Shown piece by piece: positions 1 through 27,450 of a DNA stretch of 64,000 nt (position 1 is its first letter; every line of letters starts with the position of its first letter). Below the pieces are notes generated by a model that was not told the origin of the DNA, did not search any database, and worked only from the letters and a program-made list of their open reading frames with translations. The position numbers and the translations under genes were made by a program. This DNA is from Candidatus Omnitrophota bacterium. GTDB taxonomy: Bacteria > Omnitrophota > Gorgyraeia > VGKH01. Location of the stretch: the NCBI GenBank assembly GCA_016867135.1, contig VGKH01000002.1, forward strand, positions 6,312 to 70,311, read 5' to 3'.

Positions 1-485
1 TCTTAAGTGCGTCTAAACATGTCTCTGAAGCCATAATTTCCGTGGCTAGCCAGCACCACGAATGCGTCAACGGCAAGGGGTATCCTAAAAGATTAAAGGG
101 GCAAGAGATTAATGAGTGCGCAAAGATAGTGGCTGCAGCGGACTATTACGAGGCGCTTATGCATCCTCGCTCGCATAGGGAAAGGCTAAATCCCTATGAA
201 GCATTAAGGGTGTTAATAGAGAATAAAGAACGCTTTGATTACCGTGTTTTGAAGGTTTTAATCAAACAGATGGGCGTATATCCTATCGGAAGCCTGGTCC
301 AACTTAGTTCAGGGGAAATTGGTATCGTGGTAAAAACTAATAGCCAGTCCGCTTTAAGGCCCATAGTGAAGATTTTCTTTGATGCCCAAGGTAAAAGAGT
401 CGAGCAAGAAAAGAATATCGATTTAATAAAGTCTCCCACCATAGTTATTAAAAAACCAATCCAAGAAAAAGACCTAAATTTGTAA
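1..485 (+). CDS. HD-GYP domain protein, C-terminal part (5' end outside window; frame is open to position 3)
   Basis: HHE...GKGYP motif (HD-GYP signature) near start; ORF continues upstream without a stop. Confidence 0.7.
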   Translation, partial: LSASKHVSEAIISVASQHHECVNGKGYPKRLKGQEINECAKIVAAADYYEALMHPRSHRERLNPYEALRVLIENKERFDYRVLKVLIKQMGVYPIGSLVQLSSGEIGIVVKTNSQSALRPIVKIFFDAQGKRVEQEKNIDLIKSPTIVIKKPIQEKDLNL

Positions 486-503
486 AAATCGAGATTTATT
501 AAC

Positions 504-532
504 TTGACAGTCAGAATAAAATAACTTATTAT
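504..532 (+). promoter_or_regulatory. sigma70-like promoter TTGACA-N17-TATTAT upstream of peptidase/rSAM operon
   Basis: TTGACA 504-509, 17-nt spacer, TATTAT 527-532, 37 nt before the 569 start. Confidence 0.4.
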
Positions 533-568
533 AAGAAAAGAAGATAGGATATTTTAGTAATTTATCCG

Positions 569-1072
569 ATGGATAGCGTTGAGTTGATAAAACAGGCCGT
601 AGCTACTAAAGGCAAGGCCAATCTCTCCTTTAGCGGAAAAAGCATGCACCCAACCTTAAAAGATGCGATGGTCGTTACAATATCCCGCTTTTTGCCGGAA
701 TCCATAAGAGTTTCTGATATCATAGCCTACCAACAAAATAACCAGATAGTTGCCCACAGAGTCATAAAAATAATCAAAAATAATGGAGAAATTTCATTTA
801 TAACCAAGGGTGACAACCAGCCTTTTGGAGGAGTTAGCTTTGTCGGGCAAAAAGACTGCCTCGGAAAGATAAAGAATGCTTTTACTTCCAGTTTTTGCGA
901 AAAGAATATTTTAAATGAAAATTTATTATACAGGATGTCATACGTTTTAATAGGCAGGTTGTATTTATTTTATAGAGGCTTTATACGGCGCTACCTTCCT
1001 GAATTTTTAAGGATTATTATTCGGGGATTTGTCGGCAATGTTTATTTTTGTCTTCAAAAGTTATCAGCTTGA
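569..1072 (+). CDS. signal-peptidase-I-like (S26/S24 superfamily) serine peptidase, no N-terminal TM segment
   Basis: SGKSMHPTL (box B, Ser nucleophile), HRVIKI (box D-like with Lys), KGDNQPFGG (box E GDN); hydrophilic N-terminus. Confidence 0.55.
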   Translation: MDSVELIKQAVATKGKANLSFSGKSMHPTLKDAMVVTISRFLPESIRVSDIIAYQQNNQIVAHRVIKIIKNNGEISFITKGDNQPFGGVSFVGQKDCLGKIKNAFTSSFCEKNILNENLLYRMSYVLIGRLYLFYRGFIRRYLPEFLRIIIRGFVGNVYFCLQKLSA

Positions 1073-1082
1073 GAGGTAATTC

Positions 1083-3608
1083 ATGGTAACCCAAGTCATG
1101 CAGGAACAAAAAACGACACACTCTACGCTTAGTACGGTATATTTATATTTTTCCCAATATTGTAATTTAAGATGCCGTCACTGCTGGATAGACCCTAAGT
1201 TTGCCAAAGATAAGGCGCCTAAAAATGATGATATAGACATAAAGTCAATTATTTCTGCTTTAGAAGAATGCCGCCAGTTAGGGATGAATGCGGTTAAAGT
1301 GACCGGCGGCGAGCCTTTTCTCAGGGAAGATGTATTTGAACTTTTAGATTATTGTAAAAGTAAGAAAATACATTTAAGTTTTGAGACCAATGGCACTTTA
1401 ATTAAAGATGCCCATGCCCGCGCCTTGAAAGATGCCCGGGTGGGCTTGGTTGCTGTTTCTCTCGACGGCCCCAACGCCAAGATACATCAATTGCTAAGGG
1501 GCGTGGAAGATTCTTTTGACCAGGCAGTAGAAGGAATAAAGTCGCTCAAAGAATATGGTATCCATGTTCAAGTAATTATTTCGCTTTGGCGAAACAACAA
1601 AGATTATATCAAAGATACCATAGACTTATCCCGTTTGTTGGGCGTTAATTCGGTAAAGATAAATATTATTAGCAGTATTGCCAGAGCAGGTAAGCTTATG
1701 CAGGATAGCGAGATCTTAAGTGTTGAAGAAGTCATTGATTTTTATCAGGCATTAACTGGTCAACTGAGTAAAGAAACGCCGTTTGATGTTATTTTTGATA
1801 TTCCTCCGGCTTTTCGCTTCAAAGAAAATATCCAACAAGTAGATTCATGTTCTTGCGGTATCCACGGCATATTGGGCATATTGGGAGATGGAAAAATTTC
1901 CATTTGTGGGATAGGAAGTAGCCTGGATGCGCTTGTTTTAGGTAAAGTCGGACAGGATAGTATAAAGGACATCTGGAACAATCATCCAATCCTGGAGGAA
2001 ATCAGAGATAAAGTTCCTTATAAGTTAGAAGGAATTTGTGGTAAATGCAGTAAAAGATACTCTTGTTTGGGAAAATGTAGGGCTGAGGCTTATTATAATA
2101 GCAAAACATTTGTCTCCCCATTTTCATTTTGCCAACAGGCATACGAGCAAGGACTGTTCCCTGATTCTGCCATCAAGGAAGATTTAAAGACTAATAGATA
2201 CATAGCAAGAAATAATTGCGTAATTTCTTACCAAGATAACGGCGTAATTACAACCTGTCTTAGAAAGGGCCAGGATTATATCAAATTAGAAGGTTTTGAT
2301 GTTTGGCTTTGGGATCGATTAGGGAAAGTTGAGAAACTTTCTATTGCAGAAGTTGAATCTGAAGCCAGAAAATCTGGGATTTCTAAAGAAGGCGATAATG
2401 TTGAAAGAAAAATCGAAGACTTAATAAGATCTAATGTTGTTTCTTGTGTAGAAGAAACTATGGTTTGCAATCAAGATTTGGCGATCGACAGCAAGAAATT
2501 AAATAAGTATATGGCTATGCGCGATGCCTTGGTCAGGGAATTAAGCAGCGCCAAGAATTTCGGCAAAAAAGAGGATTTAAGCAATTTTCATCAAAACGCA
2601 GTTGAGACTATCGACGGGCATTTTGAAACCAAAGAAGTGACAGCTTCTCATTTGTTGCGTGAAAACAATCCGGCGTTGGGCGGATTAAATTACGGAGCCA
2701 AGCTTTTTGAGAAGGTCGAAAGCCTAAAGACAATAGAGAAAAACGCCAGAATTTTAGATGTGGGTTCGGGATTAGGGTTTACTTCCCGATCATTTTTACA
2801 ATCTCTGAAAGAGAAAAATCCCGATGTAGCAGCCAGCATAAGTTATATACTTTGCGATTTAACCTTTAAATTCTTGAAAAACCAAAAGAATCTCACTTCG
2901 GGATATCCTACAAGATTTATCCAGGCAAACGCCGAAGGCCCGCCGTTTAATAACAACAGTTTCGATATAATTCTTGCCAATGAAAACATCGCCGATTTTA
3001 CTTCGGTCAAGCTCAACAAGAAAGATGTTCTGGATTTCTTAGTTGGCAAGATTAAGCAAGAACATGTAGAAGACGCTTCAACAAGAAAGGCGCTAGAGTG
3101 GATAAAATCATCCTCAATTGACGTAAGCGACGCCCTTCCAGAATTCATATTTAATTTAGGGGCATTCGAGTTTATGAAGCAGATTAATCGGCTGCTAAAG
3201 GCTGGCGGCTTGGCTTTTGTTTGCGAATACGGAATCTTGCGGGGTTATCCCACCGCAGTGTATCTGCCGAATCACACCGAATATACCATACAATTTTCCC
3301 AGCTTATAAAATGCATAAAATCTTTAGGTATGGAGGTTGAGGTTCGTTCTCTTTTGGATTTTTTTGATTTTAATAAAGAAGAAGAGGTTGTCGACGAATG
3401 TTCCCTGAATTTTGTCTACGGAATTATGAAAAAAAACAATATCAATTTGCCGTATTTAGCCTATACTAAAGAAATGCTGGAAGAAAAAATAAACGGGAAT
3501 TTATTGTCTAATTTCAAGAATCTGAAATTTCTGAAGATCAGAGAAAAAATGGCTTGCATGAATATGGATACATTTTATGTTTTGTTAATTAGAAAAAAAG
3601 GAGGTTGA
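1083..3608 (+). CDS. radical SAM/SPASM-domain enzyme fused to a C-terminal class I SAM-dependent methyltransferase domain (841 aa)
   Basis: CNLRCRHC (CxxxCxxC) near N-terminus; Cys-rich SPASM-like region CSCG...CGKCSKRYSCLGKCRAEAY around aa 250-330; ILDVGSGLGFTS methyltransferase motif I around aa 560. Confidence 0.8.
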   Translation: MVTQVMQEQKTTHSTLSTVYLYFSQYCNLRCRHCWIDPKFAKDKAPKNDDIDIKSIISALEECRQLGMNAVKVTGGEPFLREDVFELLDYCKSKKIHLSFETNGTLIKDAHARALKDARVGLVAVSLDGPNAKIHQLLRGVEDSFDQAVEGIKSLKEYGIHVQVIISLWRNNKDYIKDTIDLSRLLGVNSVKINIISSIARAGKLMQDSEILSVEEVIDFYQALTGQLSKETPFDVIFDIPPAFRFKENIQQVDSCSCGIHGILGILGDGKISICGIGSSLDALVLGKVGQDSIKDIWNNHPILEEIRDKVPYKLEGICGKCSKRYSCLGKCRAEAYYNSKTFVSPFSFCQQAYEQGLFPDSAIKEDLKTNRYIARNNCVISYQDNGVITTCLRKGQDYIKLEGFDVWLWDRLGKVEKLSIAEVESEARKSGISKEGDNVERKIEDLIRSNVVSCVEETMVCNQDLAIDSKKLNKYMAMRDALVRELSSAKNFGKKEDLSNFHQNAVETIDGHFETKEVTASHLLRENNPALGGLNYGAKLFEKVESLKTIEKNARILDVGSGLGFTSRSFLQSLKEKNPDVAASISYILCDLTFKFLKNQKNLTSGYPTRFIQANAEGPPFNNNSFDIILANENIADFTSVKLNKKDVLDFLVGKIKQEHVEDASTRKALEWIKSSSIDVSDALPEFIFNLGAFEFMKQINRLLKAGGLAFVCEYGILRGYPTAVYLPNHTEYTIQFSQLIKCIKSLGMEVEVRSLLDFFDFNKEEEVVDECSLNFVYGIMKKNNINLPYLAYTKEMLEEKINGNLLSNFKNLKFLKIREKMACMNMDTFYVLLIRKKGG

Positions 3609-3609
3609 G

Positions 3610-3948
3610 TTGGGCAAAATAGGATCAGAAGGAAAGATTAAAAGAAAATATACCGAACCCTTGATTTTTGATATCGGCGGTCCTAGTTTGAACGTAGTGG
3701 GAGCTAGCGCTGTGTTATGTGCAGCTGGCTCTGGAGGTACCGCAAGATGTGGTTGCGGCGCAAGCGGTACTTATTCTCTATGCGGAACCGGGAGTAAAGT
3801 TGCCACATCTTGTGCAACCGGAGGTATATTCAACTCAAATAATAACTGCGGTGCAGGCAGCTCGGCTTCAAGATGTTGTAGCACTGGCTCTAGTGCTGGT
3901 ATCACCTGTTCTATTGGCAGCGGCGTTGGGGGGGTCACAGAGGTGTAA
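3610..3948 (+). CDS. candidate RiPP precursor peptide; TTG start 5 nt after AAAGGAGG; leader with ...LIFDIGG motif; 9-Cys Gly/Ser/Thr/Ala-rich core
   Basis: Strong SD 3598-3604; low-complexity core CAAGSGGTARCGCGASGTYSLCGTGSKVATSCATGG...CGAGSSASRCCSTGSSAGITCSIGSGVGG; sits between two rSAM/SPASM genes; codon-repetitive GC-rich DNA unlike surroundings. Confidence 0.65.
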   Translation: MGKIGSEGKIKRKYTEPLIFDIGGPSLNVVGASAVLCAAGSGGTARCGCGASGTYSLCGTGSKVATSCATGGIFNSNNNCGAGSSASRCCSTGSSAGITCSIGSGVGGVTEV

Positions 3949-4029
3949 GTTTAAAAAATAGATATTAATTTTTATTTGGTACATAATAGCCAATTAATTT
4001 CTAAATAATATAAATGGAATAAAAGAAAT

Positions 4030-5100
4030 ATGTATTCTGCCCCGCTTAATGTTTGTTTGCATATAACCAGTCGATGTAATTTGAGCTGTAAACACTGCCT
4101 TAACCGGGACCAGCCAGATTCCGAGCCTGATTTAACTACCGAAGAACTTATCAGCGTTATCGACCAGCTGGGCGAAGCAAGAGTTTTTCAGATAAGCATA
4201 TTCGGAGGCGAACCTTTAACCCATCCTGATTTTACTGTCGTGGTTGAACATCTCAATAAATATCCCTTTACACTTTCTTTAAATACCAATGCCACTTTAA
4301 TCGACCGCTCTATGGCTAAATGGCTAAAAAAACATAAAATAAGAGATGCTGTAGTTAGCTTTGATGGCTCTTGTCCTGAGATAATGGATAAAACCAGGGG
4401 CGAGGGTGTTTTTGCTAAAAATATCAAAGGCATAGAGGCGCTTTTGTCCGAAGGTATTTATGTTTTGCTTTCTGCCACTTTAACTAAAATAAATTATAAA
4501 GATGCAAGAGAAATGGTTTTGTTGGGCAAGAGATTAAAAGCCAATAAAATTCGTTTTAATCATGTATTTTTTGGTGGCAACGCCGCGTGTTTTATCAAAG
4601 AGGTTTATCTTTCCCCTGAACAGGAAAGAGAAGCTATAGAAGCGGTAGTCTCGGCAAATAAAGAATTTCCTGGCTTTATCGTTCAGGATAGCACCTATCT
4701 CAACCAGAAGGATAAATTAGAAGAAATGAAAGATTTCGAACCCGCTACAGATAAAATCACTGTTGCACCTTGCGGCGCCGCTTACCTTAAATGCGCCATA
4801 AGAGCAGATGGTTGGGTTATTCCTTGCGAGTTACTATGGGATGCTAAATGCGGCAATCTAAAGAATCAGAGTTTGACCGATATTTGGCAGAATTCCGAGA
4901 CTATGAATGAATTCAGAAGGCCGCTGGAATTAGATTTAAATGAAATACCTGAGTGCAAAGGCTGTAAATACCAATATATATGTTTTATCGGACACCGTTG
5001 TAACCCTTACTATTTTCCCGGCGGGGTTAAGGACCGTTCGGTTTATTGTTTGCTAGAGGGTAAAAAAGAGATGAGGAAGGTGGCTGATGTCGTTAAATAA
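4030..5100 (+). CDS. radical SAM/SPASM-domain peptide-modifying enzyme
   Basis: CNLSCKHC motif at N-terminus; C-terminal Cys cluster APCGAAYLKC...PCELLWDAKCGNL...CKGCKYQYICFIGHRCNPY typical of SPASM twitch/auxiliary clusters. Confidence 0.85.
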   Translation: MYSAPLNVCLHITSRCNLSCKHCLNRDQPDSEPDLTTEELISVIDQLGEARVFQISIFGGEPLTHPDFTVVVEHLNKYPFTLSLNTNATLIDRSMAKWLKKHKIRDAVVSFDGSCPEIMDKTRGEGVFAKNIKGIEALLSEGIYVLLSATLTKINYKDAREMVLLGKRLKANKIRFNHVFFGGNAACFIKEVYLSPEQEREAIEAVVSANKEFPGFIVQDSTYLNQKDKLEEMKDFEPATDKITVAPCGAAYLKCAIRADGWVIPCELLWDAKCGNLKNQSLTDIWQNSETMNEFRRPLELDLNEIPECKGCKYQYICFIGHRCNPYYFPGGVKDRSVYCLLEGKKEMRKVADVVK

Positions 5101-5356
5101 GAATCTTAAGGCGAACTCAAAGATAGTATTCCGAGAAGAAACAGATGATGCGCTTTTATTCGATCCTGATAGCGGAAATATAAAAGTTATCAATGAGACC
5201 GGAAAATTCATTTGGGCCAATTTAGACGGCAAAAACGATGAAGATTCCCTGGTAAAAAAGATTATGGATAAATTCGATATTTCCGACGAGCAAAAAGCCA
5301 GGGAAGATTTAGGTAAGTTCTTGGAAGATTTAAAAATACAGAAATTCTTGGAGTAA
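5087..5356 (+). CDS. PqqD-family protein (RiPP recognition element-like)
   Basis: 89 aa; DALLFDPDSGNIKVINETGKFIWANLDG pattern matches PqqD fold consensus (x-L-L-x-x-x-sG-x-x-x-LN-x-t-a-x-x-iW). Confidence 0.7.
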   Translation: MSLNKNLKANSKIVFREETDDALLFDPDSGNIKVINETGKFIWANLDGKNDEDSLVKKIMDKFDISDEQKAREDLGKFLEDLKIQKFLE

Positions 5357-5357
5357 G

Positions 5358-5621
5358 ATGAAGATAAAACAAGTAGAAGGCCTCCTTGTGGCTTCTTTTC
5401 CGAATAGTTCGGTAATATTTAATTGCAATAATCGCCGTTCTTATATATTGAACTATACAGCGTCTTTAATTTGGGATTTCTGTAAAAAGCCAAGAGATAT
5501 AGCTGAAATCGCCTGCTTCATTCATCGAAAATATGATTTAGTTTTATCAAAAGCACTCAGAGATGCCAGAAGTTTTGTTGCGCGACTTAAGAAAAGACAG
5601 CTTCTGTCTGTTGTCAGGTAG
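5358..5621 (+). CDS. second PqqD-like small protein
   Basis: 87 aa; SYILNYTASLIWDFCKKPRDIAEI resembles PqqD helix region; tandem with previous. Confidence 0.5.
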   Translation: MKIKQVEGLLVASFPNSSVIFNCNNRRSYILNYTASLIWDFCKKPRDIAEIACFIHRKYDLVLSKALRDARSFVARLKKRQLLSVVR

Positions 5622-5638
5622 CATAGAGAGAGACAACG

Positions 5639-6583
5639 GTGGGTTTATGTGCTTTTTTCATGAAGACCATAACTTTCAATATAGCCAATATTCCGTTATC
5701 GGTAAAATGTAGAGACGACGAAGCTCTACCGTCTTTATTCCAGCAATTCACAAGCACTGCCAAGAGACCAACTGATCGAACATGGCATTTAGAATCAGTA
5801 GGTATTAAGAAAAACAGATCCAATAAATTCCCTTCCTGTATTGCAAAGAAAATAAGCCCAATAGCAGAAAGATTTGGTTCCATCCGTAACTTTAGAGTTG
5901 ATTTAGAGAAGAAACAAAAGATTTTGTCTAGTGTTTATTCACAATTTCCGGAAGCGCTATCCGATATTTCCTTTTATTTTGACGAGCCAGTTGGAATAAA
6001 TACTAAAAAAAGAAAGATTAGGCATTTTTATACGAGCTCAACAGGATTTGATGAGATAAGGAAATTTGATTCCCGGCTGACTATTTTTGCCTATTCCCAA
6101 ATTTTAGCATCTTTAGAGGGGTTTCTTTTGCATTGCGCTTGCGTAGTAAAGAATAAAGACGCCTTTTTATTCTTTGCTAAATCAGGAGGAGGAAAATCCA
6201 CGGTTGCTAAGTTATCACGGCAATATACTGTTTTAGGAGACGATATAATTGCAGTTAGGAAAATAAACCATGATTTCGTAGCTTTTTCAACACCGTGGAA
6301 ACAAAAAAAGACTGCGAATAGACGAACCTTGTTTTCTGCTAGGATCAAAGCCGTTTTTTTCTTAAGAAAATCAAATAGAGTTTTATTTAAACCGTTAAAA
6401 TCGGATAAGGCATTAGTTAGATTTCTATCGCGATACATCCATTTCTTTTTGTATACTGAAAGGCCATTGGCAGATAAAATCTTTTTTACTGCAGCTGATT
6501 TCTTTAAGACAATCCCGGCTTACGAGATGCATTTTAGAAAATATGCAGATTTTTGGCCAAAGTTGGAGAAAATAATAAAATGA
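5639..6583 (+). CDS. HPr kinase-related P-loop protein (HprK C-terminal-domain-like)
   Basis: LLHCACVVKNKDAFLFFAKSGGGKSTVAKL...VLGDDIIAV resembles HprK C-domain Walker A and downstream Asp. Confidence 0.5.
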   Translation: MGLCAFFMKTITFNIANIPLSVKCRDDEALPSLFQQFTSTAKRPTDRTWHLESVGIKKNRSNKFPSCIAKKISPIAERFGSIRNFRVDLEKKQKILSSVYSQFPEALSDISFYFDEPVGINTKKRKIRHFYTSSTGFDEIRKFDSRLTIFAYSQILASLEGFLLHCACVVKNKDAFLFFAKSGGGKSTVAKLSRQYTVLGDDIIAVRKINHDFVAFSTPWKQKKTANRRTLFSARIKAVFFLRKSNRVLFKPLKSDKALVRFLSRYIHFFLYTERPLADKIFFTAADFFKTIPAYEMHFRKYADFWPKLEKIIK

Positions 6584-8340
6584 ACAAGCTTAACTTTAAG
6601 ATTATTTTGTCTTTTCTTAAATACTTAAAGCCATATTGGAAAAAAGAAGCTGTGGTTTGGCTTTTGAGTTTTGGAATAGCCGGGCTGTCTTTAGCTTATC
6701 CTTACATTGCCAAATTAGTTGTGGACAAGGCGTATCAGGAGAGAAACTGGACTTTATTTATTGAACTTTTGGTTACGGGAGGACTTGTATTTATAATTTC
6801 AAGTTTATTCCAGGTCGTGTCAAATTTCTTAAGAGAATACATAGATTTAAAGGTCCGCTTCGACCTGCAAAAAATTATATTCCAAAAAATAGAAAATTTG
6901 CCCTATAGCTTCTTCCAATTAAGGCCCACGGGAGAGTATATATATAAATCGCTTATTGAGAGCTCTCAGGTCTCCGACTTTATTACTTCTGTCGCCCCGG
7001 AGTTGTTTTATATTATCCCCAAATTCTTGTTGATATTCACCATTCTTTTCTTCATAAACTGGAAAATGGCTGTTTTTATTTTTGTTGTGGCGCCTGTTTT
7101 AAATATCCCGACATTTTTTATTGCGCGCAAGGTTAGAAAACAATCAGAGAAGTCGCTTAATAGTTCCCAGGACATATTGGAGACAGCCCGAGAATCATTT
7201 TCTAATATGCAATTGGTCAAGGTCTTTGGAAAAGAAAAGAAAGAAAACAGGCGTTTTGTGAAACAAATGATAAAAAATATTCGCTTAAGCATAATCAGCT
7301 TCAGATTGAACGCCTTCAGTTCTTTTCTAGAAAGCTGGGCTAATAAGTTGTTGCTTGGCCTGATAACTCTTTACGGCGGATACAACATTATCAAAGGCCA
7401 GATAAGTCTGGGCAGCTTTACCGCAATAATGCTTTATATAAATCAGCTGCTTGATTTGGAGAATTTGTTCGTTGGTTTTTTTGTGCACCGTCTTAATACG
7501 GGGCTTGTTTCCGTCCGGAGGCTTTCAGAGATTATGAATTCTTGGCCGCAAGAACTTGAAGATAAAAACACAAGGGCTATTTTACTGTCATCAGGAGAAA
7601 TAGAGTTTAGAGATGTCTCTTTCGGATATTATCCCAAGACGCCTATTTTAGAGCATATAAGTTTACATATAAAATCTGGTTCGTCAATTGGCCTGGTAGG
7701 AAACTCCGGCCGCGGCAAGACGACGCTCGTTAGTCTTATTGTAAAACTTTATCAAATTTCTGAAGGTGAAATCCTTGTCGATGGGCAGGATATTAACTTG
7801 ATAAAGAATAGCTCGCTTCGCCAGCAAATAGGAGTGGCATTGCAAAAGCCAATCTTGTGGAATGATACCATTCGAAACAATATAACATATAGTATTTTAA
7901 GCGCAACTGATGAGGAAGTTCTGCAGGCAGCAATGATTTCCTGCGCTTACGATTTTATCAAAGAGCTACCGCGAGGCTATAACACTATTATGGGAGAAGG
8001 GGCGGTGCGCCTTTCCGAAGGGCAGAAACAGAGGATTTCTTTAGCAAGGGCAATCATAAAAAAGCCAAAGATTTTAATTATAGATGAAGGCATGTCTTCG
8101 CTTGATTCTCAGACCGAGGACAGTATCATTGATAACATAAAAAAGGAGCTGAAAAACACAACCATGATTGTTATTTCCCACCGTTTATCCACAATAAAGA
8201 AGGTGGATAGGGTTTACTTTTTAGAAAAGAAAGATAAAATGAGTTTTGGCCATCACGAAGAGTTGCTACATCAAAATCCTCAATACAAAGAACTATTCGC
8301 TAGTCAGATAGAAGAAGAGCATATCAAAATAAAATCATAA
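6553..8340 (+). CDS. ABC transporter, fused permease/ATPase (type I exporter, peptide-export-like); no N-terminal C39 peptidase domain
   Basis: 6 predicted TM helices then Walker A GNSGRGKTT, signature LSEGQKQRISLARAI, Walker B ILIIDEGMSSLD, H-loop ISHRL. Confidence 0.85.
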   Translation: MAKVGENNKMNKLNFKIILSFLKYLKPYWKKEAVVWLLSFGIAGLSLAYPYIAKLVVDKAYQERNWTLFIELLVTGGLVFIISSLFQVVSNFLREYIDLKVRFDLQKIIFQKIENLPYSFFQLRPTGEYIYKSLIESSQVSDFITSVAPELFYIIPKFLLIFTILFFINWKMAVFIFVVAPVLNIPTFFIARKVRKQSEKSLNSSQDILETARESFSNMQLVKVFGKEKKENRRFVKQMIKNIRLSIISFRLNAFSSFLESWANKLLLGLITLYGGYNIIKGQISLGSFTAIMLYINQLLDLENLFVGFFVHRLNTGLVSVRRLSEIMNSWPQELEDKNTRAILLSSGEIEFRDVSFGYYPKTPILEHISLHIKSGSSIGLVGNSGRGKTTLVSLIVKLYQISEGEILVDGQDINLIKNSSLRQQIGVALQKPILWNDTIRNNITYSILSATDEEVLQAAMISCAYDFIKELPRGYNTIMGEGAVRLSEGQKQRISLARAIIKKPKILIIDEGMSSLDSQTEDSIIDNIKKELKNTTMIVISHRLSTIKKVDRVYFLEKKDKMSFGHHEELLHQNPQYKELFASQIEEEHIKIKS

Positions 8341-9545
8341 TGGTCAAGATATCTCAGTCAAAAGAGAATAAAGCTTGGTTTAGCTCCCAAACGATTAATT
8401 TTTTAACCTGTTGTAGCCGCACAATTATAGACGAAGAAGTTACAGGGAAAATAAAATCTTTAATAGCGCCTGATTTAGATTGGCCAGCCATAATTATAAA
8501 AGCCAAAAATCAAGGGGTGGCACAATTTTTATATTTCCACCTGGCAAAATTAGAAGAAGTTTGGTCGATTGTGCCCGATGAATTAAAAAAAGAACTAAGA
8601 GAATTTTATCATAGAATTTTAGCTAATAATTGGTTGATTCAAAACGAGCTTAAGAAAATAATCCCGTTATTAGATCGTGTTTGCATCGAAGTTATTGTTT
8701 TAAAAGGAGCAAGCCTTCTTGGGTCGGTATATAAAAATATAGCCTTTCGTCCGATGATCGATGTGGATTTATTGGTTAGAAAACAAGATCTGCCCAGGGC
8801 AAAAACTATTCTACATGATATAGGATATCGAAAGCCAGATTTTCTAGATCAACAGAGTTTGGAGAAATTCGGAGGAGAAATTCATCTTTATAAAAATGGA
8901 GGAGTTTTTCTAGATATTCATACGACTTTATCCCAGTATGAGCGTTTTGAGGATATTCTAAAAATCGATTCCGACGAAGAACTTTGGAATAAAACAAGAA
9001 GATTTAATAATGGTGAGGGCGAAATTAGGATGCTTGGGCCCGACCATCTGCTTATGCATTTATGTATGCATCAGGCATTGGCTCATTGGTTTGCTGGATT
9101 ATTTCGTTTCTGCGATCTTCGTGAAACCATTTTGGCTTATAAAGAAGAATTGGATTTTGAATATATAATAAAAAAAGCAAGAATATACAAGATAAATAAA
9201 ATTCTTTATTTTGCCCTTTCTTCTGTGCAGGAACTTTTTGGTCCGATATTGCCTCAAGATTTCTTAGCTAATCTGCAGTATAAACATAGGCTAACTATTA
9301 GTATAGGCTGTTTTCTTTTTAGAAAAAAGATCTTATCTTTACCTGACAAAGAAGTAGCATTTCGGAAATCTATAAATCAGTTGTTTTTGATGGATAATTT
9401 TTCAGACTTGCCTCAAATTATATTTAAAGGGTTTTTTCCTTCCGATGATTGGCTCAGGTATAGATATGGAGTCAGAAGTAGGATAAAATTATTTTTTTAC
9501 CGTTTAATCCACCCCTTCATTACAGCATTTAATATTCTTTCCTAA
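8340..9545 (+). CDS. uncharacterised nucleotidyltransferase-family protein (PF14907-like)
   Basis: FRPMIDVDLLVRKQD motif typical of this nucleotidyltransferase family; size ~400 aa. Confidence 0.5.
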   Translation: MVKISQSKENKAWFSSQTINFLTCCSRTIIDEEVTGKIKSLIAPDLDWPAIIIKAKNQGVAQFLYFHLAKLEEVWSIVPDELKKELREFYHRILANNWLIQNELKKIIPLLDRVCIEVIVLKGASLLGSVYKNIAFRPMIDVDLLVRKQDLPRAKTILHDIGYRKPDFLDQQSLEKFGGEIHLYKNGGVFLDIHTTLSQYERFEDILKIDSDEELWNKTRRFNNGEGEIRMLGPDHLLMHLCMHQALAHWFAGLFRFCDLRETILAYKEELDFEYIIKKARIYKINKILYFALSSVQELFGPILPQDFLANLQYKHRLTISIGCFLFRKKILSLPDKEVAFRKSINQLFLMDNFSDLPQIIFKGFFPSDDWLRYRYGVRSRIKLFFYRLIHPFITAFNILS

Positions 9546-9576
9546 CTCCTTCTTTGGCAAAAGTTTAAGTCTTTTC

Positions 9577-9605
9577 TTGACTTTAGGGTAATTATTAGAT
9601 ATATT
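9577..9605 (+). promoter_or_regulatory. sigma70-like promoter TTGACT-N17-TATATT ahead of EPS operon
   Basis: TTGACT 9577-9582, spacer 17, TATATT 9600-9605. Confidence 0.35.
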
Positions 9606-9634
9606 AAAAGGAAAGTATATATAATTTATTAATT

Positions 9635-10699
9635 ATGCATAAATTTATTAAGATTTATAGTAGAAGGTTTTTTCTGGTCATTTTTATTTCCATTTTTATT
9701 AGTTCTTGTTCAGCCGCAAAAAGACAACAGCAATTCTCCGCGGATTTAAGAAAAGCCGCATTAAAACTCGCCCAACAGGATAGTTTTCCCAAGAATGATT
9801 ATTATACAATCGACCAGGACGATATACTTGATATAACAGTATGGAAGTCTTTAGGCTCAAAAGAAGGAGAGGCGGAAAAGGAGTATTTTATTAACGATGG
9901 CGATCAATTGGAAATTTCTGTATGGCAATGGCCAGACCTTTTAAGAAACGTTGTCGTTCGTCCCGACGGGAAAATTTCTTTTCCTTTAGTAGGAGATATC
10001 CAGGCAAAGGGGAAAACTTTAACCGCATTGGATGATGAAATTACCGAGAAACTTTCTTCTTTTATTAAATCTCCCGAGGTTTCAGTAATGATAACAGCAT
10101 TTGGGGCAGAGCAAGAAGGTTTCTTAAAGCCGGAGATATCTTTTGTTAAAGTTAATGAGTTGAGCGCAGAGCAGGCAGTGGCTCCCGACGGTAATATTTA
10201 TTTGCCTTTAATCGGAGCGGTTCAGGCTTCCGGCTTAACGTTAAATCAATTAGGTTTGAAGATAAAGGATAGCGTCGCTCAATTTGTCCAGAATCCGGAA
10301 GTCTCGGTTACTATCAAACAATTCGGTGGTAGAAAACTTATTGTCTTGGGGGAAGTTACCGATCCGGGAGTATATCTTTTTACCGGGAAAGCGACTGTTT
10401 TGGAAGCCATCGGTTGGGCAGGGGGCTACACCAGAAACGCCGTTTTAAAAAACGTGCTTGTTATAAGGGGGAATTTATCTAAACCGGAAGTTTTTAATCT
10501 GAATTTGCGCAGTGTGCTGGATAAAAAAGATATGAGCCAGAACCTAGCAATTCAGGCAAGAGATGTAATATATGTTCCCAGGACTGTTGTTGCTGAAGTA
10601 AGCCATATTTTATCACAATTGCTTGGCCCTTTGACAAGTTCATCGAGCGCAGTTACTGCTATAAAGACTATCAGGACTGGGCCTAGCCCCAAGAAATAA
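9635..10699 (+). CDS. polysaccharide export outer-membrane lipoprotein (Wza/EpsA family; Poly_export + SLBB)
   Basis: Lipobox ISSC after signal peptide; repeated PDG..ISFPLVGDIQAKG / PDGNIYLPLIGAVQASG SLBB motifs. Confidence 0.8.
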   Translation: MHKFIKIYSRRFFLVIFISIFISSCSAAKRQQQFSADLRKAALKLAQQDSFPKNDYYTIDQDDILDITVWKSLGSKEGEAEKEYFINDGDQLEISVWQWPDLLRNVVVRPDGKISFPLVGDIQAKGKTLTALDDEITEKLSSFIKSPEVSVMITAFGAEQEGFLKPEISFVKVNELSAEQAVAPDGNIYLPLIGAVQASGLTLNQLGLKIKDSVAQFVQNPEVSVTIKQFGGRKLIVLGEVTDPGVYLFTGKATVLEAIGWAGGYTRNAVLKNVLVIRGNLSKPEVFNLNLRSVLDKKDMSQNLAIQARDVIYVPRTVVAEVSHILSQLLGPLTSSSSAVTAIKTIRTGPSPKK

Positions 10700-10700
10700 A

Positions 10701-12620
10701 ATGCCACAATACGAATTAAATATTCAAGATTATTTAAGAATCCTCCGGAAGAGAAAATGGATAATTTTTCTTACCATAATTTCTACTTTCGTTGGAACCA
10801 TAACTTACAACAATCTTCAAACTCCTGTCTATAGCGCTAGCGTCTCAATCAAGATAGAAGTGCGTCAAACCGCGATAGCCGCGCTTACTGAGACTATTTT
10901 AGGATACGGCTATGATGTATTGGCCACCGAGCAGAAAGTTATAACCGGCCGTCCCGTCGTGGAAGAGGCGGCAAGGCGCCTGGAGCTATTCTCCAAAAAT
11001 GCCTCGCAGGACGAAATTGATTTTATAGTAAGCGATATACAGGCCGGTTTGAATTCAATCACCGACCAGATTTCTTCAATTATTTTGCTAACTGTGGAAT
11101 CCGACCAGCCGAAAAAAGCCCGGGATATCGCCAATAAAATAGCAGAAGTTTACATCGAAGAGAACCTAAAACAGAGAAGCAAAGAGGCAACCCAGGTTAG
11201 AGATTTTATTGAGAAACAACTATCTGATGTGGAGACAAGACTACACGCTTCGGAAGATGCGTTGGCAAAATTCAGGGAGCAAGAAGCGGTTACCGGAGTG
11301 GCGGTGGGTCTGGAAAACCGCCTTGGAACATTAAAGGCGCAATTATCTGATTTATTAACTAAGGCAACCGAAAAACATCCCGACGTCCAGCGCTTGGAGG
11401 AACAAATCAAAGAAGCGGAGGACGAGCTAAAGAAACTTCCTCAGGCCGAACTGGAATTCGCCAGGCTTGAGCGCGACGTCAACGTCAATGAAAAGCTTTA
11501 TACAATGTTAAGGGAGAAATTTGAGGAGGCAAGGATTTCTGAGAAAGGAATGGTTTCTCAGGCAACGGTAGTCAATCCCGCGGTAGAGCCAAGAGTCCCT
11601 ATAAAACCAAACAAAAGATTCGCCGCGGTTGTGGGAGTAGTGGTGGGAATGATGCTAGGTTTGATTCTGGCATTTGTTACTGAGAGCTTGGACACATCTA
11701 TCGGAACAATAGAAGACGTTGAGAACTTGTTAAAAGTTCCAGTGTTGGCGATAATTCCTTCCATAAAGACGGAGGTCGCCGAAGAAAAACCTTGGTGGAA
11801 GCGGGGAATTTTTCCGCAAATGCAACAGACTAAAGAGGAGGAAAGAGAGGCGGCGCTCTCTGTGCTTTTTAAACCGCTATCTCAGATTGCCGAATCATAT
11901 AGGATATTAAGGACCAATCTTAAAATATCCGATACGAAAAAAGCTTTTCTTGTAACAAGCTGTGGGCCTCAAGAGGGAAAGACAACTGTTTTAGTGGGCC
12001 TAGGCATTACCTTGGCGCAGATGGGGATAAAGACGCTTCTAATCGATTCAGACCTCAGGCGTCCGTCGGTACATAAAAAACTCGGTATCACTAAAGAATC
12101 TGGAGTAAACGAGATCGTTAATAAGTCAATAACCTGGCAAGATGCGGTTAAAGGACTGCCGGATATTTTGATGGGAGAATTAGGCTTTGACGATGCGCTT
12201 AAGAATCCCGGATTAGACAATTTGAGCATAATTACTGCCGGTGCATCTTCTAACAATCCTTCAGAGTTATTGGGTTCAAAGACTATGGAGTCATTGCTAG
12301 CTGAATTCAGAGACAATTTTGACGTAATCTTGTTTGATTCTCCTCCCAGCTTGGCAATAACCGATGCCTCTGTGCTTGCGCCTTTGCTTGATGGGGTAGT
12401 AATTGTTTATGAGATGGGCAGGACCGCAAGGGCCGCGCTGTTAAGAGCAAAGGTTCAGTTAGAATCTGTCGGCGCAAATGTCCTAGGAGTGGCGCTTAAT
12501 CATATCAAGCCAGAAAGCGAAGTAGCAACTGGTTATTATCCATATTATTATCATTATAAATACAAATATGCCGAGAAGCAAAAGGAAGAAAAAGAATCTC
12601 ACCATCAGGAGTCTACATAA
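10701..12620 (+). CDS. polysaccharide co-polymerase/BY-tyrosine autokinase (Wzc-like: chain-length determinant + P-loop kinase + C-terminal Tyr cluster)
   Basis: N-terminal TM + Wzz-like coiled region; Walker A SCGPQEGKTT; Walker B VILFDSPP; C-terminal YYPYYYHYKYKY. Confidence 0.85.
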   Translation: MPQYELNIQDYLRILRKRKWIIFLTIISTFVGTITYNNLQTPVYSASVSIKIEVRQTAIAALTETILGYGYDVLATEQKVITGRPVVEEAARRLELFSKNASQDEIDFIVSDIQAGLNSITDQISSIILLTVESDQPKKARDIANKIAEVYIEENLKQRSKEATQVRDFIEKQLSDVETRLHASEDALAKFREQEAVTGVAVGLENRLGTLKAQLSDLLTKATEKHPDVQRLEEQIKEAEDELKKLPQAELEFARLERDVNVNEKLYTMLREKFEEARISEKGMVSQATVVNPAVEPRVPIKPNKRFAAVVGVVVGMMLGLILAFVTESLDTSIGTIEDVENLLKVPVLAIIPSIKTEVAEEKPWWKRGIFPQMQQTKEEEREAALSVLFKPLSQIAESYRILRTNLKISDTKKAFLVTSCGPQEGKTTVLVGLGITLAQMGIKTLLIDSDLRRPSVHKKLGITKESGVNEIVNKSITWQDAVKGLPDILMGELGFDDALKNPGLDNLSIITAGASSNNPSELLGSKTMESLLAEFRDNFDVILFDSPPSLAITDASVLAPLLDGVVIVYEMGRTARAALLRAKVQLESVGANVLGVALNHIKPESEVATGYYPYYYHYKYKYAEKQKEEKESHHQEST

Positions 12621-12646
12621 TAGGTCGTATTTCTTGATTATTTAAT

Positions 12647-12676
12647 AAAAGGGGATGTTTGTCCCCTTTTTGTTTT
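12647..12676 (+). terminator. rho-independent terminator after wzc-like gene
   Basis: AAAAGGGGA-tgtttg-TCCCCTTTT hairpin followed by TGTTTT. Confidence 0.55.
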
Positions 12677-12680
12677 CGCT

Positions 12681-14114
12681 ATGAGCCATAACAATTTCCT
12701 GAAAGAAAAATATAATTTTCTCACTACCAATTTTGGCCAGATGGATATTAGGGCATTGGCCTTGTTGCTGGTCCTGATAGCGTTTTCGGCAATTATCGGT
12801 TTTAAGATGGCGGCGTTTCATCCGCTTGTTCCGATAGCTCTTTTGGCCGCAGTTACGCTGGGAATAGCGACTTTAGTAAATACAAATCTGGGTTTAACGA
12901 TTTTGATTTTTTCAATGCTTCTATCCCCAGAAATACCTATAGCTCAAACTGTAGAGAGGGCTGTAACTGTCAGGATTGAAGATTTCTTGATTATCGCCGT
13001 ATTTTTCGCTTGGTTTGCCAAGACTGCGGTAAGGAAAGAGTTAGGTTTATTGCGCAAAACCCCGCTTAATAAGCCTATACTTGCTTATTTGGCTGTGAGT
13101 ATTTTTTCTACCGGGCTAGGGATAATGAGCGGGAATGTTAGCGCAAAAATCGGCTTCTTTTATATCCTTAAATACATAGAATTCTTTATGATATTTTTCC
13201 TTTTTGTGAATAATCTTGAGGACAAAAAACAGATTAAGACATTTATTTTCTGTTTTCTGTTGGTTTCTTTCATAATAGGAGTTTTGACCTATGCTCAGAT
13301 TGGAAGGATTGACCGTCCCACGGCGCCTTTTGAAGGAGCGCATCCCGAGCCGAATACCCTCGGAGGTTATTTAGTATTAACTTTAGCTACGGCGCTGGGA
13401 ATCTTGTTATATTCAAGCAATACAAACGTAAAGCTAATTTTACTTGGGCTAGTGTGTTTTAATTTTTACCCGCTCTTAATGACTCTTTCTAGAAGCTCTT
13501 ATTTGGCATTTGTCCTGCTTTATTTAATCTTAGTTTTCTTCTCAAGGAAACACAGGTTGATTTTGATTAGTCTTTTGGTTTTTGCTATTTTATTTTTACC
13601 ATTTTTTATACCCGAGAGAGCTAAAGACAGGGTTCTTTATACATTTAGTTACGGTTCTCATTACACTTTTGGCGGCGGGAAGATCAGGTTGGAGAAATCT
13701 GCTGCGGCAAGAGTTGAGACTTGGCAGAGCGCCATGGATTACTTGCAGAAAAAACCATTTTTTGGTTTTGGAGTAACAGGCGTACCTTTTATGGATTCTC
13801 AGTATGCGAGACTTTTGGCAGAAATCGGAATTTTCGGGTTTTTAATATTTCTTTGGTTGATTTTCGCGATAATAAAAAGCGCATGGTATATATTTAACAA
13901 TTCAACCGATTATTTCACTCAAGGCTTGAGCCTTGGTTTTTTGGGGGGTTTTGCGGGGATGTTGCTCATGGGATTAGCGGCGAATGTTTTTGTTATTGTA
14001 AGAATTTCTGAACCATTCTGGTTTTTGTGCGCCTGTGTTATGGCCTTATTTGATATTCAACCTATGCAGGCAGCTCCGGGAATCAAAAGGATGGACCATA
14101 CAGATTCAACTTAA
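12681..14114 (+). CDS. O-antigen ligase/polymerase-like polytopic membrane protein (Wzy_C-like)
   Basis: ~11 TM helices, periplasmic loop region, position in EPS locus. Confidence 0.5.
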   Translation: MSHNNFLKEKYNFLTTNFGQMDIRALALLLVLIAFSAIIGFKMAAFHPLVPIALLAAVTLGIATLVNTNLGLTILIFSMLLSPEIPIAQTVERAVTVRIEDFLIIAVFFAWFAKTAVRKELGLLRKTPLNKPILAYLAVSIFSTGLGIMSGNVSAKIGFFYILKYIEFFMIFFLFVNNLEDKKQIKTFIFCFLLVSFIIGVLTYAQIGRIDRPTAPFEGAHPEPNTLGGYLVLTLATALGILLYSSNTNVKLILLGLVCFNFYPLLMTLSRSSYLAFVLLYLILVFFSRKHRLILISLLVFAILFLPFFIPERAKDRVLYTFSYGSHYTFGGGKIRLEKSAAARVETWQSAMDYLQKKPFFGFGVTGVPFMDSQYARLLAEIGIFGFLIFLWLIFAIIKSAWYIFNNSTDYFTQGLSLGFLGGFAGMLLMGLAANVFVIVRISEPFWFLCACVMALFDIQPMQAAPGIKRMDHTDST

Positions 14115-14137
14115 ATATTTAATTAATAAATGGAGAT

Positions 14138-15589
14138 ATGGATCTAACCAATAGAGCAATAAAAGGGACATTCATTGTCGCAGGAAGCACTTATTTTATT
14201 GATTTAATTTCATTTGTTCGCTCTATAGTCTTGGCGAGGTTGCTTGTGCCGGAATATTTCGGAATTGTCGCCTTGGCGTCATTTTTCTTCAATTTAATCA
14301 GGCAGCTTAAAGAATTTAACCTAGATTCTGCGCTCATTTATAAACCCGATGCTTCAAAAGATGATTTTTCTACCCATTTTGTATTAAAGCTGCTTTTGGC
14401 TTTGCTGACTCTTTTTGTTATAGCCGCTATCTCTCCAATTTTGACAAGATTCTACGGACCGGATATCACAAAAATAATTTTGATATTTGCCTTTTTTTCC
14501 ATATTCCAAGAGGCTGCTGCTACTCCCCGCGTAGTCCTGGAAAAAGAGCTTTTATTTTCCCGGGTGGCCGTAATTAATATCGTAAAAGAAATAATCAAGA
14601 CGATTATTCCGATTGGCATGGTTTTTCTTGGATTTGGCTTATGGAGCTTGGTGGCAATGGCTGTTTTGGATATGTCTATCCCATTTTTTTGTTTTTTAAT
14701 AACTAGGACCTGGAGGCTCTCTTTTCGGTTAAGCAAAGAAAAGGCGATATGGTTTTTGAAATATAGTTCATATATGTGGATAGCCGGCTTATGCATAACT
14801 TTAATGTATGAATTTGATGATTTTCTCGTCGGTGTTATGGCGGGGATGGTTGCATTGGGGCTGTATGTCAAAGCCTATGATTTTTCTGAGCTACCCACCC
14901 AACTTGTAACGCATATCATAAATAGAGTAAGCTTACCGTTGTATTCTAAATTAAAAGATAATAAGGCTGAGCTTTCGCGGTCATTTAACAATTTCTTGTA
15001 TTTTATATTTAGATTAGCCCTTCCTTTGGCACTGGCGCTATTCATCGTGGCGCCGGAGTTTATCTATATTTTCTTAGGAGCAAAATGGGCCGGCGCAATA
15101 TTATTGTTAAGATTGTTAATCGTTTATTCTGTTTTGCGTTCGATTCAGGATGATTGTTCGGCTTTATTTTATGGGATAGGCAAGCCGAAAATTATGACTT
15201 ATGTCGTAACTGCTCAAGCGATAATAATGGTGGTCCTGGCGCCGTTTTTCGTTTATTTCTTTAAAGTAAATGGCGCCGCGATATTCGTAGATTTAATGAC
15301 GATAATAGGTATTATATTGATCTATAAGAATGTATCAGTTTTTGTCGATGTTGAATACAAAAAGAATTTTCTTGCTCCTATAGTCAGCGCGATAATTGGC
15401 TTGCTTGCAGTATTCATTTTTCTGCAAAATGTCTATATCCCGGGATTATTTATTCGTTTAATCGTTAAATTATTTTTGTTCGGTGCGATTTATACAAGCA
15501 TTCTTATTTTGCTTTCCAAGGATGAATTGTCGCATAAATTTAAATTTGTGTTTGAGATATTAAAGCCAGGTATGTTAAATAAAAAATAA
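14138..15589 (+). CDS. polysaccharide biosynthesis protein, MOP-superfamily flippase (Wzx-like)
   Basis: ~12-14 TM helices, N-terminal polysacc_synt-like pattern. Confidence 0.55.
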   Translation: MDLTNRAIKGTFIVAGSTYFIDLISFVRSIVLARLLVPEYFGIVALASFFFNLIRQLKEFNLDSALIYKPDASKDDFSTHFVLKLLLALLTLFVIAAISPILTRFYGPDITKIILIFAFFSIFQEAAATPRVVLEKELLFSRVAVINIVKEIIKTIIPIGMVFLGFGLWSLVAMAVLDMSIPFFCFLITRTWRLSFRLSKEKAIWFLKYSSYMWIAGLCITLMYEFDDFLVGVMAGMVALGLYVKAYDFSELPTQLVTHIINRVSLPLYSKLKDNKAELSRSFNNFLYFIFRLALPLALALFIVAPEFIYIFLGAKWAGAILLLRLLIVYSVLRSIQDDCSALFYGIGKPKIMTYVVTAQAIIMVVLAPFFVYFFKVNGAAIFVDLMTIIGIILIYKNVSVFVDVEYKKNFLAPIVSAIIGLLAVFIFLQNVYIPGLFIRLIVKLFLFGAIYTSILILLSKDELSHKFKFVFEILKPGMLNKK

Positions 15590-15640
15590 GATAATTTCTC
15601 TGCATTCTTAGATCGTTTTCAAAAGAAAGGATATTTAATT

Positions 15641-20171: not shown

Positions 20172-20182
20172 TAGAGTTAGGA

Positions 20183-21610: not shown

Positions 21611-21613
21611 AAT

Positions 21614-22453: not shown

Positions 22454-22456
22454 AAT

Positions 22457-24822: not shown

Positions 24823-24842
24823 ATAATTAGCTTAAAACATAT

Positions 24843-25565: not shown

Positions 25566-25590
25566 TAAATTATTTAAGAACGGATTAAAC

Positions 25591-27447: not shown

Positions 27448-27450
27448 GAT

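Follow-up and report, generated by a model that had tools for sequence, protein, structure and literature searches.

We analysed a 64,000-nt stretch of Candidatus Omnitrophota DNA (contig VGKH01000002.1; hereafter the window), in which nine tightly packed plus-strand genes at 569–9545 appear to encode the maturation of a peptide that is made on the ribosome and modified after translation (RiPP) and are followed, from 9635 onward, by polysaccharide export genes (Table 1). An earlier sequence-only reading had singled out four open reading frames (ORFs) within 5087–9545, encoding two consecutive PqqD-like proteins, an HprK-like P-loop protein and a PF14907-like nucleotidyltransferase, and all four are present on the plus strand where it placed them. 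Each has homologues of 40–70% identity on other Omnitrophota contigs, where gene order is kept, and because of these same-order homologues and the translationally coupled junctions described below, we regard the four ORFs as real genes rather than chance reading frames. Identical genes are also present on Logan metagenome contigs, and the named homologues all belong to Omnitrophota metagenome-assembled genomes (MAGs). The functional unit, nevertheless, is the whole of 569–9545, and the singled-out span is too narrow: it leaves out the signal peptidase gene at 569–1072, through which the set connects with the family of linear polyphosphorylated peptides (LPPs).

The nine genes form a single operon with translational coupling. 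The first PqqD gene (RRE1, see below) begins at an ATG lying 14 nt within the preceding radical S-adenosylmethionine (radical-SAM) gene, giving a 14-nt overlap, and its stop is separated by a 1-nt gap from the ATG of the second (RRE2). The exporter ATG at 6580 sits on the stop of the ScmC-like gene in an ATGA overlap, and the exporter stop and the ATG of the PF14907 gene overlap as TAATG. This ATG at 6580 (586 aa) is most likely the exporter start, rather than the TTG at 6553 (595 aa), and the ScmC-like gene may start at the ATG at 5660, where homologues start, instead of at the GTG at 5639. The TTG start of the precursor gene lies 5 nt past a GGAGG Shine–Dalgarno sequence (3600–3604). The best plus-strand promoter-like site is found upstream of the first operon gene, although consensus matches in the promoter and terminator scan were overall not above shuffled controls; an Rfam scan of 1–16000 returned no RNA family reaching its gathering score.

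Table 1. Features of the operon and its immediate surroundings (window coordinates)
Feature	Position	Strand	Basis or remark
Promoter-like site TTGACA-17-TATTAT, 11/12 consensus	504..532	+	In 83-nt gap 5′ of first operon gene; weak evidence
Archaeal-type signal peptidase, 167 aa	569..1072	+	TIGR02228 63.8 bits, cutoff 51.85
ScmF-like radical-SAM/SPASM enzyme (~aa 1–365) fused to class I SAM methyltransferase (~aa 540–720), 841 aa	1083..3608	+	TIGR04251, PF04055, PF13186, Methyltransf_11/25
Precursor peptide, 112 aa, TTG start	3610..3948	+	Position-conserved homologous ORFs; GGAGG at 3600–3604
ScmE-like radical-SAM/SPASM enzyme, 356 aa	4030..5100	+	TIGR04250, PF04055, PF13186
RRE1, PqqD-family, ScmD type, 89 aa	5087..5356	+	PF05402, TIGR04248
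RRE2, PqqD-family, lasso-B1 type, 87 aa	5358..5621	+	PF05402, lasso_PqqD_Bac
ScmC-like P-loop protein, HprK/PEPCK fold, 314 aa	5639..6583 (start maybe 5660)	+	Proposed peptide Ser/Thr kinase, LppK counterpart
MsbA-like ABC exporter, permease + ATPase, no C39 peptidase domain	6580..8340	+	ABC_membrane, ABC_tran, best NCBIfam TIGR02203
PF14907 (NTP_transf_5) nucleotidyltransferase-fold enzyme, 401 aa	8340..9545	+	PsmN/LppN counterpart
Wza 9635–10699, Wzc-like 10701–12620, Wzy_C 12681–14114, flippase 14138–15589	9635..15589	+	Context: polysaccharide export/assembly

The profiles of both small PqqD-like proteins match solved RiPP recognition elements (RREs), namely TbiB1, TfuB1, PbaB1 and LppB, and we refer to them as RRE1 and RRE2. 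Against a PF05402 gathering threshold of 23.4 bits they score 53.2 and 41.7 bits, respectively, so that two consecutive PqqD-like proteins are indeed present and the second is not a marginal match. The best NCBIfam model of RRE1 is ScmD (TIGR04248; 58.4 bits, cutoff 100) and that of RRE2 is lasso_PqqD_Bac, which describes Bacillota lasso B1 proteins (35.8 bits, cutoff 80); the RRE2 profile matches TbiB1 at 1.7e-7, TfuB1 at 1e-6, PbaB1 at 9.9e-6 and LppB at 0.005. RRE2 had been suspected of being a degenerate duplicate, and the adjacency of the two genes, their similar length and the lower PF05402 score of RRE2 would fit a copy of RRE1 that is redundant or decaying and does nothing by itself. 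The two proteins, however, share only 23% identity, and RRE2 orthologues from six lineages retain 37–54% identity and 11 invariant positions, including the recognition-type residues N32, W39 and D69; one such orthologue, a 90-aa ORF just upstream of ScmC in lineage L006 (9754–10026), had been missed by the gene caller. The tandem PqqD proteins of the distant lineages L016 and L018 again pair one RRE2-type with one RRE1-type member, as scored with our own hidden Markov models (HMMs; 48.7/15.7 and 22.0/61.3 bits in the former, 40.0/24.9 and 16.2/57.5 bits in the latter). Finally, the RRE1 orthologue is the N-terminal domain of the ScmE-like radical-SAM enzyme in L012, L008, L014 and L021, whereas RRE2 is a discrete protein in every lineage that has it, which argues that RRE2 is not a decayed copy. 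We therefore regard the duplicate explanation as extremely unlikely; as judged from these sequences, the pair is old and made of unlike members, with RRE2 a conserved and distinct RRE lineage. From the fusions it is well supported that RRE1 serves the radical-SAM enzyme. RRE2 might serve the kinase and the peptidase, the natural, if weakly grounded, reading of merged one-RRE systems. Matches of RRE1 to polyubiquitin chains in the PDB (phmmer) were discarded as artefacts made up of many weak repeats.

The precursor gene lies between the genes for two radical-SAM/SPASM enzymes, of which the ScmF-like one scores 338.8 bits and the ScmE-like one 167.3 bits against their Scm models, each with a cutoff of 400. 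Fusion of the ScmF-like enzyme to a methyltransferase is seen only in the window and in L004, the ScmF-like proteins of other lineages being 365–381 aa long. Part of the ~170-aa linker between the two domains (aa ~372–460) looked PqqD-like by eye, but Pfam PqqD gave no match there at E ≤ 1 and neither our RRE1 nor our RRE2 HMM reached 2 bits, and a third RRE was rejected. In L006, the ScmF-like enzyme has no methyltransferase, and a third radical-SAM gene, of the non-SPASM kind (8583–9719; 378 aa), stands between RRE1 and RRE2.

The precursor itself has no Pfam or NCBIfam match, and homologous ORFs occupy the equivalent position in L004, L006, L010, L012, L008, L014 and L018. These peptides share a basic N-terminus and a leader motif Y-x-x-P-x-[LIV] (here YTEPLI, aa 14–19), and a [Y/F]xxPx[LIV] leader motif occurs in the candidate precursors of nine lineages; in lasso and LPP leaders, a motif of the YxxP type is what the RRE binds (PMC13381572). 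A conserved G-x-[S/T]-x directly precedes the first Cys (here GASA, aa 31–34), and the core that follows contains nine Cys with a period of ~10 residues, arranged in CxxG repeats. Across the loci, cores carry 7–10 Cys spaced 9–12 residues apart, mostly as CxxG, and 13–22 Ser and Thr after the first Cys, with the 185-aa precursor of L014 being longer and richer in Cys. Judged from six aligned precursor sequences, the leader could be cut at any of three points: behind the conserved Gly, behind the S/T, or behind the small residue that comes next, in keeping with the classical −3/−1 rule; the LPP leader cut falls after a Thr (PMC13381572). A scan of the window for a second precursor-like ORF ([KR]..[YW]xxPx[LIVF], then at least four Cys) returned only 3610–3948 and one implausible match on the minus strand. 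In L016, a candidate precursor (9001–9210) next to genes for ScmC, two PqqD proteins, an S24 peptidase and PF14907 has an FQAPKI leader motif and a Ser/Thr/Pro/Gly-rich core without Cys, so that the kinase module can also go with cores that are not rich in Cys.

The P-loop protein carries KSGGGKST at aa 181–188 and LGDD at aa 199–202. Its best and sole significant NCBIfam match is ScmC (TIGR04249; E = 6.5e-12, 45.4 bits), below the equivalog cutoff of 125, and in a precomputed database annotation this protein and all 32 of its homologues carry PF27840 ‘ScmC’, although our local Pfam search did not return PF27840. The HprK-related kinase A model (TIGR04352) reached only E = 0.012 and 14.7 bits against a cutoff of 200, over the P-loop alone, while neither the HprK-related kinase B model (TIGR04355) nor the HPr(Ser) kinase models (PF07475, TIGR00679) gave a match at E ≤ 10. 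There was also a weak match to the P-loop of phosphoenolpyruvate carboxykinase (PEPCK; E = 0.0015). Because the ScmC profile gave only sub-threshold P-loop matches against PDB chain sequences, fold searches were needed; these matched the protein to PEPCK and to the catalytic domain of HprK, the H, Walker A and DD motifs following one another in the same order, and Foldseek agreed. The residues invariant in the family, H165, G185-K186-(S/T)-T188 and D201-D202, follow the HprK order H...Walker A...DD, and D201-D202 are the counterpart of a metal site in the lasso kinase PsmK, which loses its activity when that site is mutated.

An exhaustive profile search gathered 16,347 representative clusters at E ≤ 1e-3, among which wide conservation is limited to the C-terminal, P-loop half; the N-terminal half (aa 1–140) is confined to a small subfamily. 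Among 61 sampled relatives, 55 match TIGR04249, 38 HprK_rel_B, 29 HprK_rel_A and 6 the bona fide HPr(Ser) kinase model TIGR00679 (best E 6e-6), and relatives of the ScmC-like protein, by model matches, form a continuum with the HprK-related models. The description as HprK-like is correct at the level of the superfamily, in both fold and motif order, but membership of HprK-related kinase A or B or of PF07475 did not hold up, and the family is most likely ScmC. The accompanying argument that HprK-like kinases are known to phosphorylate RiPPs rests on real precedent (PMC6993621, PMC13381572).

The last gene of the operon encodes a PF14907 protein, as had been proposed (E = 2e-47, 162 bits, gathering score 31.2), in which DVDLLV lies at aa 141–146 and K122-G123, D141-x-D143, H244 and D259 are invariant. 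Its structural model (predicted local distance difference test score 85.5) shows a Pol-beta-type nucleotidyltransferase fold, the nearest solved structures being nucleotidyltransferases of the ANT(2'') type and including 4xje, one of the two templates found by the authors who described PsmN (PMC6993621). The further suggestion that this enzyme might nucleotidylate or AMPylate the peptide has no precedent in the family: PsmN, the only relative to have been characterised, was needed for attachment of a hexose to phosphate, and LppN showed no activity. By analogy, hexose addition to a phosphate is the likely chemistry rather than AMPylation. In the signal peptidase, the triad of S25 (SGKSMHPT), H63 (AHRV) and D82 (KGDN) does not vary among 7 homologues and matches the catalytic residues S29/H68/D93 of LppS.

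The gene set recurs in ~15 independent metagenomic lineages; these and all other co-occurrence counts rest on ~16 lineages and not on a census, because scanning genome and metagenome collections by pattern, which depends on one conserved peptide pattern, yielded few loci (4 and 8). The full order of peptidase, radical-SAM enzyme, precursor, radical-SAM enzyme, RRE1, RRE2, ScmC, ABC exporter and PF14907 is kept in the window, L004, L006 and L010, and the same set is found rearranged in L012, L008, L014 and L021. A PF14907 gene accompanies ScmC in 15 of the 16 lineages with enough flanking sequence, the exception being L023. Co-conservation of the ScmC-like and PF14907 genes with PqqD and radical-SAM genes thus bears out the sequence-only reading, and neither protein fell into an unrelated family.

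Several parts of the set are also joined in single proteins, and such natural fusions support their functional coupling. PqqD is fused to ScmC in P0063 (353 aa; L015 138–1199), ScmC to an S24/SpI peptidase in P0159 (485 aa; L017 735–2192, with PF14907 genes directly after it), while P0042 and P0047 (769 and 790 aa) combine a radical-SAM domain that NCBIfam types as HxsC-like with a ScmC-like domain of full length. One radical-SAM–ScmC fusion gene (L014 4829–7138) lies in a cluster that reads S24 peptidase, radical-SAM, PqqD, PqqD fused to radical-SAM/SPASM, 185-aa precursor, fusion gene, ABC exporter and PF14907. Polysaccharide genes adjoin the operon in six lineages (the window, L004, L006, L010, L012 and L021) and lie downstream of it on the partial contig L022. 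No polysaccharide genes, in contrast, adjoin the sets of L008, which has pyrimidine genes at its flanks, of L016, which has Rnf genes there, or of L018, and the module is therefore self-contained. Other loci offered further arrangements: L008 carries a second, divergent set at 1–5773 (PF14907, S24 peptidase, ScmC, PqqD, a 43-aa ORF with WVEPKI and a radical-SAM gene), and an insertion sequence of the DDE_Tnp_1 type at 5834–7138 splits the ScmF-like gene of its main set from RRE2. A syntenic trio of PqqD, PF14907 and ScmC-like genes was matched weakly (E 1e-5 to 1e-7) in an Acidimicrobiia MAG (L013 7599–10618).

In the window, nearly all genes are on the plus strand, with GC skew positive throughout, and the glycan locus opened by the genes at 9635–15589 extends to at least ~30 kb. 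Its co-directional continuation at 15641–29828 encodes a Polysacc_synt_2-type dehydratase (assigned through the L006 orthologue), three class I methyltransferases as separate proteins, four glycosyltransferases of family GT4, including a 746-aa double GT4, a GT9 glycosyltransferase and a second flippase. Also in this locus, 16 kb from the operon, an AsnB-type asparagine synthase (25591–27447; GATase_7 + Asn_synthase, 343 bits) retains its GATase domain intact; we do not read it as a candidate lasso cyclase, although it belongs to the same superfamily. On the other side of the operon, 42–485 encodes the C-terminal portion of a protein of the HD_5 (HD-GYP-like) kind, whose gene begins before the window; the full gene (375–393 aa) lies directly upstream of the operon in L001, L002, L004 and L006, in a syntenic position. 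This protein may be a cyclic di-GMP-linked regulator of the peptide and polysaccharide locus.

From the genes identified above, the folds and conserved catalytic residues of their products, the way the operon is built, and the co-conservation and domain fusions, we favour, with somewhat more confidence than doubt, a RiPP operon in which a radical-SAM cassette of the SynChlorMet type has merged with a phospho-peptide module of the LPP type. By analogy with those systems, its product would probably be a secreted, Cys-rich peptide that is both cross-linked and phosphorylated. In the first module, the two radical-SAM/SPASM enzymes, aided by RRE1, would most likely install Cys-derived thioether cross-links in the CxxG repeats, and the fused methyltransferase would add methyl groups. 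In the second, RRE2 would bind the YxxP leader and the ScmC-family kinase would phosphorylate Ser or Thr, our best guess for the site being the conserved G-x-[S/T] before the first Cys. The PF14907 enzyme would decorate the phosphate further, by the PsmN analogy with a sugar, possibly drawn from the neighbouring glycan locus; the archaeal-type signal peptidase would cut the leader presented by the RRE, and the MsbA-like pump would export the product. The chemistry of every step, the pairing of RREs with enzymes, the phospho-acceptor and the cleavage site are predictions from homology or analogy.

Several observations weigh against this proposal. Sequence alone gives the kinase no HprK link (PF07475 without a match, TIGR04352 at E = 0.012), and its fold is no closer to HprK than to PEPCK. 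The RRE2 profile is nearer to lasso B1 proteins than to LppB, for which the RRE1 profile performs better (2e-4 vs 0.005), and in L012, L008 and L014 RRE2 lies between the two radical-SAM genes and could serve the ScmF-like enzyme instead. The LPP leader consensus YxxPxVLxHQxIxFETxxS is matched only in YxxPx[LIV], with no HQ and no FET, and the cores lack a conserved Ser at position 3, the acceptor in LPPs. On the SynChlorMet side, all four components score below their equivalog cutoffs, and literature searches on SynChlorMet, ScmC, TIGR04248–04251 and PF27840 turned up no relevant paper and no experiment. Among the characterised relatives of the PF14907 enzyme, no in vitro activity was obtained for PsmN, and LppN showed no detectable activity in a heterologous host (PMC13381572).

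Two alternatives concern the role of the kinase and its partners. Phosphorylation could be a transient processing signal rather than a final decoration, leaving a mature product that is only cross-linked and methylated; the phosphate would then either mark the precursor for the signal peptidase cut or activate Ser/Thr for conversion into dehydro-residues that react with Cys, and the PF14907 enzyme would act elsewhere, or remove or turn over the phosphate. HprK/P is itself bifunctional, both kinase and phosphorylase, the cores are rich in Cys as well as in Ser/Thr, and the inactivity of LppN would be in keeping with such a scheme. We nonetheless consider it unlikely, as in both systems characterised so far the cleaved or mature peptide keeps its phosphates, neither a lyase nor a lanthionine cyclase is encoded in the operon, the two radical-SAM/SPASM enzymes already explain the Cys chemistry, and the steady company of PF14907 and ScmC argues for a common substrate. 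A different possibility is that the ScmC-like protein, the exporter, the PF14907 enzyme and the S24/S26-type peptidase are part of the neighbouring polysaccharide machinery, for example for sugar-phosphate or lipid-carrier chemistry, and are merely adjacent to the peptide genes. The operon does head a glycan locus of at least ~30 kb, with adjacency recurring in six lineages; LPP clusters are likewise found inside capsule loci, MsbA-type pumps export lipids and glycolipids, and the PEPCK-like fold is one of kinases for small molecules. The same set nevertheless occurs away from polysaccharide genes in L008, L016 and L018, ScmC is fused to PqqD, peptidase and radical-SAM domains, LppK and LppS act on peptide in experiments, and the RRE gene junctions are translationally coupled, all of which makes mere adjacency very unlikely.

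A third view would accept the merged operon and link it to its neighbourhood: the mature product would be a thioether-stapled repeat peptide bearing a phosphodiester-linked glycan, serving as a primer, anchor or organiser of exopolysaccharide rather than as an antibiotic, and the PF14907 enzyme would join a sugar, or the growing polysaccharide of the adjacent locus, to the phosphate installed by the kinase. We hold this to be a rather improbable extension. If it were true, the LPP/ScmC/PF14907 module would be a widespread, cross-phylum system for coupling peptides to polysaccharides.

Returning to the merged RiPP operon, what is new is that two separately described peptide-tailoring machineries are joined in one operon, in a phylum from which neither had been described. 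ScmC, hitherto a ‘conserved hypothetical’ of the computationally defined SynChlorMet cassette, gains a testable role through the Ser polyphosphorylation carried out by LppK, and because no paper on the cassette was found, its link to an experimentally shown peptide kinase is drawn here and not in the annotation. The LPP-type module is seen outside Bacillota, in Omnitrophota and in the distant Acidimicrobiia match, and together with radical-SAM chemistry, neither of which is in the published description of the family; literature on Omnitrophota and RiPPs held nothing specific. The peptides that combine a YxxP leader with Cys-periodic repeats of ten residues are candidate precursors for this type of cassette. 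The unlike RRE pair would offer a natural case of two recognition proteins acting on one leader, placing within a single operon the question of discrimination that the LPP paper raised between clusters. That the module recurs, in two phyla far apart, where exopolysaccharide loci begin may point to a part in capsule or biofilm biology.

Among the closest known systems, HPr kinase/phosphorylase and ATP-dependent PEPCK, which have the PEPCK-like P-loop fold, share the motif order H...GxxGxGK[ST]...DD with the ScmC-like protein; it differs from them in having no significant match to PF07475 or TIGR00679 and in a context of peptide maturation rather than carbon catabolite control. With SynChlorMet (TIGR04248–TIGR04251; PF27840) the operon shares its composition of two radical-SAM/SPASM enzymes, PqqD and ScmC, and each of the four components finds its best match in its own Scm model. 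From the scores, the cassette is related to SynChlorMet and not a member of it, and the operon has in addition the peptidase, the exporter, the PF14907 enzyme, a second RRE and the methyltransferase fusion.

Among the lasso peptides paeninodin and pseudomycoidin, tailoring is by PadeK or PsmK and by PsmN, that is, by a P-loop kinase with an essential DD and a paired PF14907-type enzyme with an essential DxD, and the same pairing is found here. In pseudomycoidin, PsmK phosphorylates the C-terminal Ser and depends on the D158/D159 pair, while PsmN, with D134 and D136 essential, is required for +162 Da hexose additions to the phosphate (PMC6993621). Further likeness lies in the fold match to 4xje of both PsmN and the PF14907 protein and in the proximity of RRE2 to lasso B1 proteins. 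On the other hand, both a macrolactam synthetase and a B2 cysteine peptidase are missing from 569–9545, the lasso kinases appear, in the part of the LPP supplement listed, to be typed as TIGR00679 and not as ScmC, and the precursor here is far longer and Cys-rich.

The LPPs, products of LppA/K/B/S/D/N in Bacillota (Popov et al., Nat Commun 2026, PMC13381572), to which their authors consider them restricted, provide the other comparison. Their precursors are 35–200 aa long with a YxxP leader and their clusters lie within capsule loci; LppK adds several phosphates to core Ser3, and LppS cleaves the leader with LppB required, cutting unphosphorylated precursor poorly (PMC13381572). Supplementary Data 2 of that paper assigns the 152 members of its ‘HprK kinase’ class to TIGR04249 (67), TIGR04352 (65) and TIGR04355 (11), the ScmC model thus accounting for ~44%, and the peptidase to TIGR02228, the transferase to NTP_transf_5 and the pump to TIGR02203/TIGR02204 (PMC13381572). 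Of the two kinases in the P. alginolyticus locus studied experimentally, one is typed as TIGR04249 and the other as TIGR00679, and because TIGR00679 is seen, among 48 of the 126 columns, only in loci with a lasso cyclase (PMC13381572), LppK is most likely a ScmC-type kinase, a conclusion we draw from these columns and not a statement of the authors. Measured with the same models as in the paper, the operon has the five-part LPP core of signal peptidase (SpI, TIGR02228), discrete RRE, HprK-like kinase, MsbA-like exporter and NTP_transf_5, and it resembles LPP clusters also in its long precursor with a YxxPx[LV] leader motif and in its embedding in a polysaccharide locus. It departs from them in its Omnitrophota host, its Cys-periodic core and its additional genes, a second RRE, a methyltransferase and two radical-SAM/SPASM enzymes, and because of these additions the product, unlike an LPP, is unlikely to be linear.

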